Positions 8,966 to 42,516 of a stretch of 64,000 bases of DNA are shown here, piece by piece. The position numbers and the translations under genes were made by a program. The stretch covers positions 20,894,001 to 20,958,000 of the forward strand of contig OZ024766.1 in NCBI GenBank assembly GCA_964016885.1. Direction: 5' to 3'. The stretch is from Eledone cirrhosa (Eukaryota). The first letter of the stretch is position 1. Every line of letters starts with the position of its first letter. The notes under the pieces were generated by a model. It saw nothing but the letters and a program-made list of their open reading frames with translations, searched no databases and was not told the DNA's origin.

Positions 8966-11900
8966 TTACATATGGAAGCTAAGTATGTCGATGGCGTCGT
9001 TGTGGTACTTTTTGTGCCTTCTTCTCCTCTTCTTCCTCTCCTTTTTCTTCACCTTATCACTGTTGTTGTTGTTGTTGTCGTCTTCGGGGTTCTCGTTTTC
9101 TCCACTCGGTGGCGTAGCCGCAGTCGTCTGCGTCATTTGGTAGAACTGGGTCGACGGCGGCGCTGGAGTCGTCTCGTCGGTGGTGCGAAGCGGCTCGGTG
9201 GCCTGCGTCTGGTGTAGCGGGAGCGCGCTGCTGATTTGCTGCTGCGGGTCAACGCCCGTGCGTCCACCATCATCATCGTCATCATTGTGGTCATCATTAT
9301 TATCATCATCATCATCACCATCATCGTCATTATCATCAATGTCGTCATTTTTACCAATGGGATCACTGTTACTGTTGCTGTTGGTACTGTTGTTGTTGTG
9401 TTCAGGCGAGGTTTCAGGCAATAGAGTGCTTGTGTCTTCGTAATCGGAGCTCTCGGGTTTAGCAGCATCATCATCATCATCGACACCAATACCACTACTG
9501 TTACTGTTGCTGTTGGTACTGTTGTTGATGTGTTCAGGCGAGGTTTCAGGCGATAGAACGCTTGTGTCTTCGTAATCGGAGCTCTCGGGTTTAGCAGCAT
9601 CATCATCATCATCGACACCAATACCATTACTGTTACTGTTATTGTTGGTACTGTTGTTGATGTGTTCAGGCGAGGTTTCAGGCGATAGAACGCTTGTGTC
9701 TTCGTAATCGGAGCTCTCGGGTTTAGCAGCAGCATCAGCATCATCGACACCAATACCACTACTGTTACTGTTATTGTTGGTACTGTTGTTGTTGTGTTCA
9801 GGCGAGGTTTCAGGCAATAGAGTGCTTGTGTCTTCGTAATCGGAGCTCTCGGGTTTAGCAGCAGCATCAGCATCATCGACACCAATACCACTACTGTTAC
9901 TGTTGCTGTTGGTACTGTTGTTGATGTGTTCAGGCGAGGTTTCAGGCGATAGAACGCTTGTGTCTTCGTAATCGGAGCTCTCGGGTTTAGCAGCATCATC
10001 ATCATCATCGACACCAATACCACTACTGTTACTGTTATTGTTGATGTGTTCAGGCGAGGTTTCAGGCGATAGAACGCTTGTGTCTTCGTAATCAGAGCTC
10101 TCGGGTTTAGCAGCATCATCATCATCATCATCATCGTCAGTAACATTGCCACTGCTGTTATTGTTATTACTGCTGCTGTTGTTGTTGTCAGGCGAGGTTT
10201 GAGGCGGTAGAGCGCTCGTGTCATAGTAATCAGGGCTCTCGGTTTCAGCATGATCCCGATCAACATCATCACCATCACCTCCAACACCAGTAATACCACT
10301 ACTGCTGCTATTGTTGCTGCCGCCGCCGCTGCTGCCGTTCTTAGGCGAGATTTGAGTCGGTGGAGCGCTCGTGTCATCATAATCAGAGCCCTTTGCTTGT
10401 ACACCATCACCAGTAATACCACTACTGTTGTTGCTATTGCTGCTGTTGTTGTTGTTGTTGTTGTCAAGTTGGTTTTCGTTCGGCAGAGCGTAAATGTCGT
10501 CATAGTCGTCGTAATTGCGGAAGTCCGCGTATTCGACGTCATCGAGGGGAATTGTGGGCAACGTAGCGCCCCTTATGTTGCTGTCGTAATCACCGCCGCC
10601 GTCCTTCGTTAAGTTACGGTCCCCTCCGAGAGAGGACGTTCCGTTACTGCTCGGCGTCCAGTTTTTCGCCGCATCCCCGTCCGGGCCCACACCCCGCGAG
10701 TTTGTCTCCGGCGTTGTGCCCGAGCTTGGGTCTGGAGTTGCGTCTGTGTTCGGGTTTGTGACCGAAGTTGTGTCAGGGTTTGTGTCTGAGGTTGTGTCTG
10801 ATCTTGTGTCAGGGTTTGTGTCTGAGGTTGTGTCTGAGGTTGCGTCAGGGTTTGTGTCTGAGCTTGTGTCTGAGGTTGCGTCAGGGTCTTCACCACCACC
10901 ACCACCATCACCAACGACACTACTACTACTACTACTATTTCTACTATCACCGATACCATTATTTCCTACAGGTGCCGTGTCTCGACCTTTTCTTGCATCT
11001 GTCCGTATCTCATTTGAAGCGCTTCCAGTCATCGCCACGGTAACAGCTCCTGCAGCCGGCGGCGGTGGCGGCATTGCCGTTGGTAGTAGAAGAGGTGTTG
11101 GTGGTGCAGCTGCTGCTTTCGAAACTGCAGAACTAGCGCCGTCGCCATCTTGAGTAGAAGACGTTGCATTGTTATTATTGACTGAACTTGCGTAATCTTC
11201 TGGGTCTGATATAGCTTCATCAGCGTAATCCCAATTTTCATCATTGTCGTAGTCTTTGTCGTTGTATTTGGATGCATTGTAAGGAATGATTGGTGAATCT
11301 GCCACTGGTGTCGTTATTGTCTTCTTCTCTCCCTCGCTGTCTTTGCCCTCTACGTCCACAGACACTGCTTCCCCTGACACCTTTTTTGCTTCCCCCTCTG
11401 CTTCATCACCTGCCGAAAAATCTTCTAGTGGGGTCGTTGAGTTCTCTCCCCCTGGCTGTGTCGTGTTTGTCGCCGCTGCTGTTGTTTCTGTTACCCCAGA
11501 CATTTTTCCCTCTTCCTCTTTGTTCTCCCCCATGTCCCGCCATTCGTCGGCGCCGCCTGTTGAAAAATCTTCTAGCGGGCTCGTCGAGTTGTCTGCCCCT
11601 GGTTGTTGTGTCGTGTTTGTCACCCCTGCTGCTGCTGCTGCTGCTGCCGCCGCTGCCGCCTCCGTTACCACAGGCAACCATTCGTTCTCCCCCACGTCCC
11701 GCCAGTCTTCGTCGTCACCTGCCGAAAAATCTTCTGGCGGGCTCGTTGAGTTATCTGCCCCTGGTTGTGTCGTGTTTGTCACCCCCGTTGCCTCCGTTAC
11801 CCCAGGCAACCATTCCTCTTCGTTCTCTCCCAAGCCTTGCCATTCTTCATCGCCTGCTGGTAAATTTTCTAGCGTGCTCGTTGAGTTATCTGCCCTTGGT

Positions 11901-42500: not shown

Positions 42501-42516
42501 CTTGCATGAAAAACAT
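42501..42516 (-). CDS. ZP-A exon 1 coding part (MFFMQ)
   Basis: gcagccATG TTT TTC ATG CAA G|gtaaga; phase 1 joins exon 2 to give signal peptide [23 protein letters not shown]. Confidence 0.72.

Follow-up and report, generated by a model that had tools for sequence, protein, structure and literature searches.

The window, the whole 64,000-nucleotide stretch of Eledone cirrhosa DNA that was analysed, is a part of contig C27, in a region of the 3.0-Gb genome that is dense in tandem repeats. Three predicted tandem genes with a ZP module of the VEZP/VERL family are located here, genes A and B within the window and gene C just outside of it (Table 1). The first-pass annotation had described a tandem pair; the cluster is instead a trio, as a third, Asn-rich paralogue lies approximately 7 kb beyond the left end of the window. 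That A and B are two spliced genes on the minus strand was borne out by exons with GT-AG ends and open frames, and their tandem paralogy by shared intron positions and alignable ZP-N and ZP-C regions. Comparison of the two proteins yielded local alignment scores of 63 for ZP-N and 100 for ZP-C, neither of which was matched by any of 1000 shuffles, at an identity of only 26%. Introns 2 and 3 interrupt A, B, and C at identical aligned positions in phases 1 and 0, respectively. The phases 1,1,0, which had been assigned to both genes, apply in full to A; for B the series reads only ?,1,0, since its sole candidate first exon has a phase-0 donor, and the agreement is confined to introns 2 and 3.

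Gene A comprises four exons with GT-AG ends, which join in phases 1, 1, and 0 into an open frame for a predicted product of 426 amino acids (pI 9.83, 15.3% Gly, 8.9% His) with a hydrophobic N-terminus (hydropathy 1.99). Its linker insert contains six GP[F/L][H/Y]x(x)HSG units and holds 43 Gly, 22 His, and a single Tyr, with a net charge of +4. The likely orthologue of A in O. bimaculoides (XP_014785894.1 / LOC106880446; 51% identity over the module and 60% over ZP-C) is likewise basic and ends just past the last Cys. Unlike A, it comprises 249 amino acids, lacks the Gly/His insert, and its record begins at ZP-N without a signal peptide. To judge from the two sequences, the Gly/His loop of A is a lineage add-on, seen in one of the two species compared. 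The orthologue already bears the automatic name "vitelline envelope sperm lysin receptor", and a functional study of it was not found in the literature.

Two DNA-like contigs, X1 and X2, span most of exons 3 and 4 of A with zero to one differences, and the small-share run X4 covers, within the A stretch 36900-39330 that was examined, intronic repeats only and no exons. The 156-bp triplication at the 3′-end of the gene appears to be real, since a collapsed contig is present at about twofold depth in X1 and X2. An assembly artefact was ruled out for the exons of A and for the triplication by these DNA contigs, which possibly derive from the assembled individual.

Gene B (exons 18300-18118, 15804-15416, and 14683-8966) encodes a predicted product of at least 2,096 amino acids with a pI of 4.05, 16.7% Asp, and a net charge (K+R-D-E) of -360. 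The last exon, 5,718 nucleotides in length, contains one in-frame stop, the terminal one, as compared to 42 and 304 in the other frames, and the periods of all 41 tandem-repeat rows within it are divisible by three. A search for a phase-1 signal-peptide exon with a good donor yielded none for B. The candidate first exon given in Table 1, which would extend the protein to 2,118 amino acids, was the sole match in 18.6 kb, compared with one match in 283 kb of control DNA, under criteria that were set post hoc.

A search of the species' own genome with the VERL_C profile returned eight matches among 15 candidates, two of which belong to gene C. In the latter, ZP-N is interrupted by a Thr/Pro/Gly insert, and PWQ-type repeats, four in number, are present together with a poly-Asn tail (27.5% Asn overall); the N-terminus is hydrophobic, and the first exon was not found. 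A furin site (RAKR) is located 19 amino acids after ZP-C, and the Asn-rich tail would be cut off if this site were used. The gene is adjoined by an open frame of 472 amino acids, which we take to resemble the C-terminal portion of non-LTR retrotransposon proteins. Gene D, located on another contig, contains an RTKR furin site 27 amino acids after ZP-C, followed by an EHP-like stretch and a hydrophobic C-terminus, features that make its predicted product the best candidate for an oocyte-anchored envelope subunit. Further matches comprise single exons. A segmental duplication is suggested for those on C24 and C18, which both start at the CG.G motif, corresponding to a different intron, and resemble each other in their flanks.

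Table 1. Features of the ZP gene cluster, its surroundings, and related loci. Positions refer to the window unless a contig is named.
Feature	Position	Strand	Content
A exon 1	42501..42516	-	Start codon, 5 codons + 1 base; phase-1 GTAAGA donor; in-frame join to exon 2; predicted
A exon 2	39906..40073	-	Hydrophobic signal-peptide-like stretch and first half of ZP-N (C1, C2)
A exon 3	38508..39280	-	Second half of ZP-N, interdomain linker with Gly/His insert, first ZP-C strand
A linker insert	38613..39050	-	146 aa rich in Gly/His/Ala/Pro between ZP-N and ZP-C
A exon 4	36950..37273	-	ZP-C; stop 15 residues past last Cys; without CFCS, EHP, TM
156-bp triplication	36568..37037	.	TRF; copies last three cysteines of A, stop, 3′ flank
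B candidate exon 1	35868..35951	-	Signal-peptide-like, phase-0 donor; would join acceptor at 18283
B exon 2	18118..18300	-	First half of ZP-N; alternative acceptor 18283
B exon 3	15416..15804	-	Second half of ZP-N, short Asp/Gly/Ser linker insert, first ZP-C strand
B exon 4, ZP-C part	14345..14683	-	VERL_C match
B exon 4, tail	8966..14344	-	1,792-aa acidic repetitive tail; 466 D+E, 58 N-glycosylation sequons
B C-terminus	8966..9037	-	Polybasic RKKRRRR site, then short hydrophobic end
Intronic minisatellite arrays and N gap	27801-34758, 40461-42455, 55995-56194		Large arrays (81-bp x 87; 32-bp units) and 200-base N gap
Neighbouring gene	54335-54480	+	Exon matching human renalase (PDB 3qj4, E 1e-4); possible synteny anchor
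Gene C	C27:20882525-20886735	-	About 7-11 kb beyond left end of window
Open frame beside gene C	C27:20880963-20882378	-	472 aa
Gene D	C2:52237171-52242365	-	Canonical VEZP-like layout; ZP-N intron differs from trio
Further VERL_C exon matches	C24:18076418, C18:18684616, C285:11045		Single-exon

The VEZP/VERL-type identity proposed earlier for A and B was confirmed by matches to VERL_C (Pfam PF25272) above its gathering cut-off of 27.2 bits, by the presence of all ten cysteines, and by the fold of the orthologue of A. VERL_C scored 74.6 bits (E 1.4e-20) on exon 4 of A, 29.5 bits (E 8.2e-07) on exon 4 of B, and 108.2 and 40.4 bits on gene C. The cysteines, four in ZP-N and six in ZP-C, occur without exception in A, B, C, D, and the 16 relatives of the alignment, a set that was also used for the tree and from which the fragment P0007 was left out; two extra ZP-N cysteines of A are shared by its O. 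bimaculoides orthologue. A ZP-N profile built without this orthologue scored 27.3 bits on A and 26.3 bits on B, values that none of 500 shuffles reached. Each protein contains one ZP-N, 20-55 residues from the predicted start. VERL proper, the lysin receptor, was ruled out, as no N-terminal tandem ZP-N repeats are present.

Searching 1.84 billion representatives with the ZP-C of A yielded 17 relatives, namely the O. bimaculoides orthologue, 14 other named proteins, and two unnamed ones. The 14 named proteins stem from gastropods, chiton, and bivalves and include abalone VEZP16 and Tegula vitelline coat protein 41; all relatives whose names derive from experiment are egg-coat proteins. Word-based searches for homologues of exon 4 of A and of the ZP-C of B remained blank, the latter yielding no orthologue of B in another cephalopod, and P0002 matched only itself, results that carry little weight, since the search with exon 4 of A missed the 60%-identical orthologue. 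A search of the Atlas with exon 3 of B gave no usable match.

In the tree, A groups with its O. bimaculoides orthologue (97/89), B joins them (93/89), and a 97/96 branch separates the 14 named non-cephalopod rows from the rest. Given the long branches of B, C, and D and an arbitrary root, a single origin of the trio is suggested by the shared intron rather than demonstrated by the tree. An unnamed Logan protein of 279 amino acids (P0004) shows a weak grouping with A and B (88/83); it matches VERL_C and has no basic site past its ZP-C either.

A structural comparison with ZP proteins by AlphaFold and Foldseek, which had been suggested in the first-pass annotation, revealed a fold like that of VERL, ZP3, and uromodulin for the orthologue of A. 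Its AlphaFold model (pLDDT 78.7) matched uromodulin (E 3.2e-6) and ZP3 (E 1.8e-4) in Foldseek. When VIA-align was employed, the top eight rows were all ZP chains, with an egg-coat filament at Z 9.9 and abalone VERL repeat 2 at Z 9.5 (rmsd 2.4, 90 residues aligned). The partial ZP-C model of B is weak (pLDDT 61; best Z 4.1, to uromodulin), with ZP chains in seven of the top nine rows. Searches of PDB sequences with the ZP-C of gene C and with the family profile matched no ZP chain.

The opposite net charges of A and B stood up to scrutiny (pI 9.83 vs. pI 4.05, net -360), and B is indeed extremely acidic, the module contributing -17 and the 1,792-aa tail -339. The notion of chemically opposite low-complexity cargo did not hold, as the insert of A bears only +4 and the charge of A resides on its ZP-C (+20). 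Gene A thus encodes a basic and Gly/His-rich protein as described, but its basicity does not stem from the insert. The O. bimaculoides orthologue is even more basic than A (net +47, pI 10.7) although it lacks the insert, which indicates that the basic folded domain is the conserved property of A. The charge contrast alone is weak evidence, since ordinary limpet and snail VEZPs already show opposite module charges, and the modules of the 15 other relatives range from pI 4.24 to 9.75 and from -22 to +20 in net charge. Ser-Gly dipeptides lie in an acidic context in 11 of 17 cases in B vs. none of 11 in A, and Tyr residues in 21 of 34 vs. none of six; we take these acidic-context positions of B to be possible GAG-attachment and Tyr-sulfation sites. 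By computed charge, A stays positive up to about pH 9.9 and B is negative above pH 4, and neutrality corresponds to roughly 5-15 A per B.

According to the available part of bioRxiv 2023.06.21.544075, canonical ZP filaments need CFCS cleavage, release of the EHP, and the FXF motif of ZP-C. Neither a CFCS nor an EHP was found in A, and a C-terminal TM or GPI anchor, optional among ZP proteins of this kind, is missing from both A and B. That A and B lack a transmembrane anchor, as stated previously, was corroborated by a hydropathy scan, since the maximum over 19 residues past residue 40 amounts to 1.38 in A and to 1.58 in B, the latter in a poly-Ala run. As a distinctive trait, however, the missing anchor fails, because five of the 15 other relatives also end 3-22 residues past the last Cys without a basic site. 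In B, the first strict R-x-K/R-R site occurs at residue 2074, about 1,770 amino acids after ZP-C, and no strand is predicted just past the last Cys; three looser R-x-x-R sites are found earlier in the tail. The RKKRRRR site of B and the hydrophobic end that follows it possibly represent a displaced CFCS/EHP.

A conserved Phe is found three residues downstream of SPxF in C, in D, and in 14 of 15 relatives. This Phe is replaced in B, in A, and in the orthologue of A, the last of which has His at the FxF-like position. We tentatively equate the residue with the FXF motif of ZP-C by its spacing; a profile search of the PDB gave no alignment with which to compare it. Since A and B both lack a Phe that is probably part of the polymerisation motif, their canonical co-polymerisation, which had been put forward earlier, is doubtful, the more so as A is devoid of CFCS and EHP. 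With the standard ZP filament reading weakened, a charge-driven association is left as the simpler link between the two proteins.

Abalone VEZPs such as VEZP16, the C-terminal module of VERL, and Tegula vitelline coat protein 41 resemble A, B, and C in the ten-Cys ZP-N/ZP-C arrangement and in the CG.G and SPYF motifs, at 18-30% identity. In contrast to these proteins, A has neither furin site nor tail, the 1.8-kaa acidic tail of B replaces the adjacent furin site, low-complexity inserts occupy the linker of A and B and interrupt the ZP-N of C, both A and B have lost the FxF-like Phe, and tandem lysin-binding ZP-N repeats are absent. The vertebrate ZP1/ZP3 heteropolymer and the uromodulin filament are alike in fold and set a precedent for a two-subunit co-polymer, but they need CFCS, EHP release, and FXF, of which A lacks the first two and both A and B apparently the third (bioRxiv 2023.06.21.544075, available part). 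The insert of A is reminiscent of squid DgHBP-1/2 with their Gly/Ala/His-rich repeats, aromatics, and pH-dependent His charge; the squid HBPs, however, are ZP-less disordered proteins, whereas the unit of A is a loop in a folded ZP protein (PMC11931252, accessible sections). In the same sections, GHGxY is said to drive HBP coacervation. Membership of A in the beak HBPs was ruled out, as its insert does not contain GHGxY.

The products of A, B, and C are predicted to be secreted, given the hydrophobic N-termini of A, C, and the candidate first exon of B. Their family membership, together with the histochemistry of the octopus oviducal gland, leads us to propose tentatively that they are structural parts of an octopod egg covering, be it chorion or oviducal cement, in which A and B would form a charge complex; we regard this as a real possibility, somewhat short of probable. 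Gene product A would be a compact disulfide-bonded polycation with a charge of +24 to +54 between pH 8 and 5.5, to which the His-rich loop may add a pH or metal switch. Gene product B would form a polyanionic brush of about -290 to -360 that is glycosylated and possibly Tyr-sulfated or GAG-bearing. Its tail would stay attached, as ZP-C is not followed by a strict furin site. As A lacks CFCS and EHP and both A and B lack the FxF-like Phe, a true ZP filament is more likely built by C and D, and A and B would serve as accessory or non-filament subunits.

For the egg coat of O. vulgaris, the accessible text of PMC13336147 describes strongly eosinophilic granules in the peripheral gland and an acidic, alcian-blue-positive secretion in the central gland; stability of the coat is reportedly limited to pH 5.5-9.0, and a pH of about 5.2 is given for the mature distal oviduct. 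The same two-gland octopus egg cement is described in the available part of PMC8976471, and in both texts, as far as accessible, the central-gland product is termed a mucopolysaccharide and not a protein. The partner of A could therefore be a glycan, with B being made elsewhere. The charge-pH behaviour of A and B is compatible with the pH window of the coat but not specific, since any polycation/polyanion pair would behave similarly. A bolder version, which we consider quite unlikely, is that the cluster provides the protein parts of the two-gland egg cement, an egg-coat ZP family having been diverted from polymerising into filaments to curing as a polyelectrolyte. The peripheral gland would then supply basic A and the central gland hyper-acidic, glycosylated B; in the acidic oviduct the two would be kept apart or stay soluble, and they would set once mixed at the pH of seawater, the switch being tuned by species-specific His loops.

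Titles and abstract openings listed by full-text searches of the literature, where subscription papers were mostly beyond reach, contained nothing on cephalopod VEZP-like proteins. The accessible text of a 2026 ZP review (PMC13361971) holds 0 occurrences of "cephalopod" or "octopus", and that of a cuttlefish egg-case paper (PMC4500399) 0 occurrences of "ZP domain" or "zona pellucida". Searches of the supplements of PMC11202624, PMC10804787, PMC9068888, and PMC8976471 did not turn up the names of these genes; for one of them, which gave six GO-term matches, this covers the first of the rows concerned, a zonadhesin-like gene.

Several other readings compete with an egg covering that includes an A-B charge complex. 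The two proteins may be ordinary egg-coat VEZP paralogues that diversified independently and enter a ZP heteropolymer with C and D, in which case their charge contrast would be incidental and no special A-B complex would form. The egg coat of abalone contains more than 30 ZP proteins, of which some carry unstructured repeats (PMC3567151, available part), and the spread of module pI in the family (4.24-9.75), the five tail-less relatives among 15, the lack of conservation of the Gly/His insert, and the low identity of A and B (26%) all fit this view. It is nevertheless somewhat unlikely, in our judgement, because the net charges of the orthologue of A (+47) and of the tail of B (-339) are far beyond those of the modules of the 15 relatives (-22 to +20), because A and B both lack the Phe that C, D, and 14 of 15 relatives keep, and because they group as sisters (93/89), albeit on long branches. 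That one or both genes are unexpressed relics hardly deserves credence: the first exon of B is a candidate only, but the frames are open over 426 and approximately 2,100 codons, all ten cysteines and the GT-AG ends are kept, the repeat periods are divisible by three, and A has an annotated orthologue.

A role outside reproduction, which appears unlikely, would have B template or inhibit mineral in statolith or stylet, or hydrate mucus, and A harden the cuticle of beak, sucker lining, or radula via His-metal bonding or coacervation. B is Asp-rich like acidic shell proteins, ZP proteins are known from the matrices of mollusc shells and coral skeletons (PMC9290575, accessible part), and the insert of A is Gly/Ala/His-rich like the squid beak HBPs (PMC11931252, accessible sections). 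However, the shell-matrix ZP proteins described in PMC9290575 are EGFZP/EGFL, which the same part of that paper treats as a family separate from VEZP, and the insert of A, which lacks GHGxY and contains one Tyr, is absent in O. bimaculoides. A male product, with A and B building spermatophore tunics or the cement body, seems improbable to us. The secreted, anchor-less, and fast-diverging architecture would suit a glandular product, and spermatophore tunics are removed in the female tract (PMC13336147, accessible text), yet the experimentally named relatives are egg-coat proteins, and nothing that points to males was found.

On the evidence of their sequences, these are genuine genes from a known family, with an unusual architecture. 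If they are merely more VEZP paralogues, the result is a corrected annotation and an extension of the VEZP family to octopods. The available parts of PMC13336147 and PMC8976471 describe the glue of octopus egg strings by staining and name no structural protein, and the genes reported here are testable candidates. Should they indeed encode egg cement, they would represent a new design of underwater adhesive. Whatever the tissue, A would be a natural ZP module without CFCS, EHP, anchor, and probably FXF, and as such probes the reach of the standard rules of ZP assembly.
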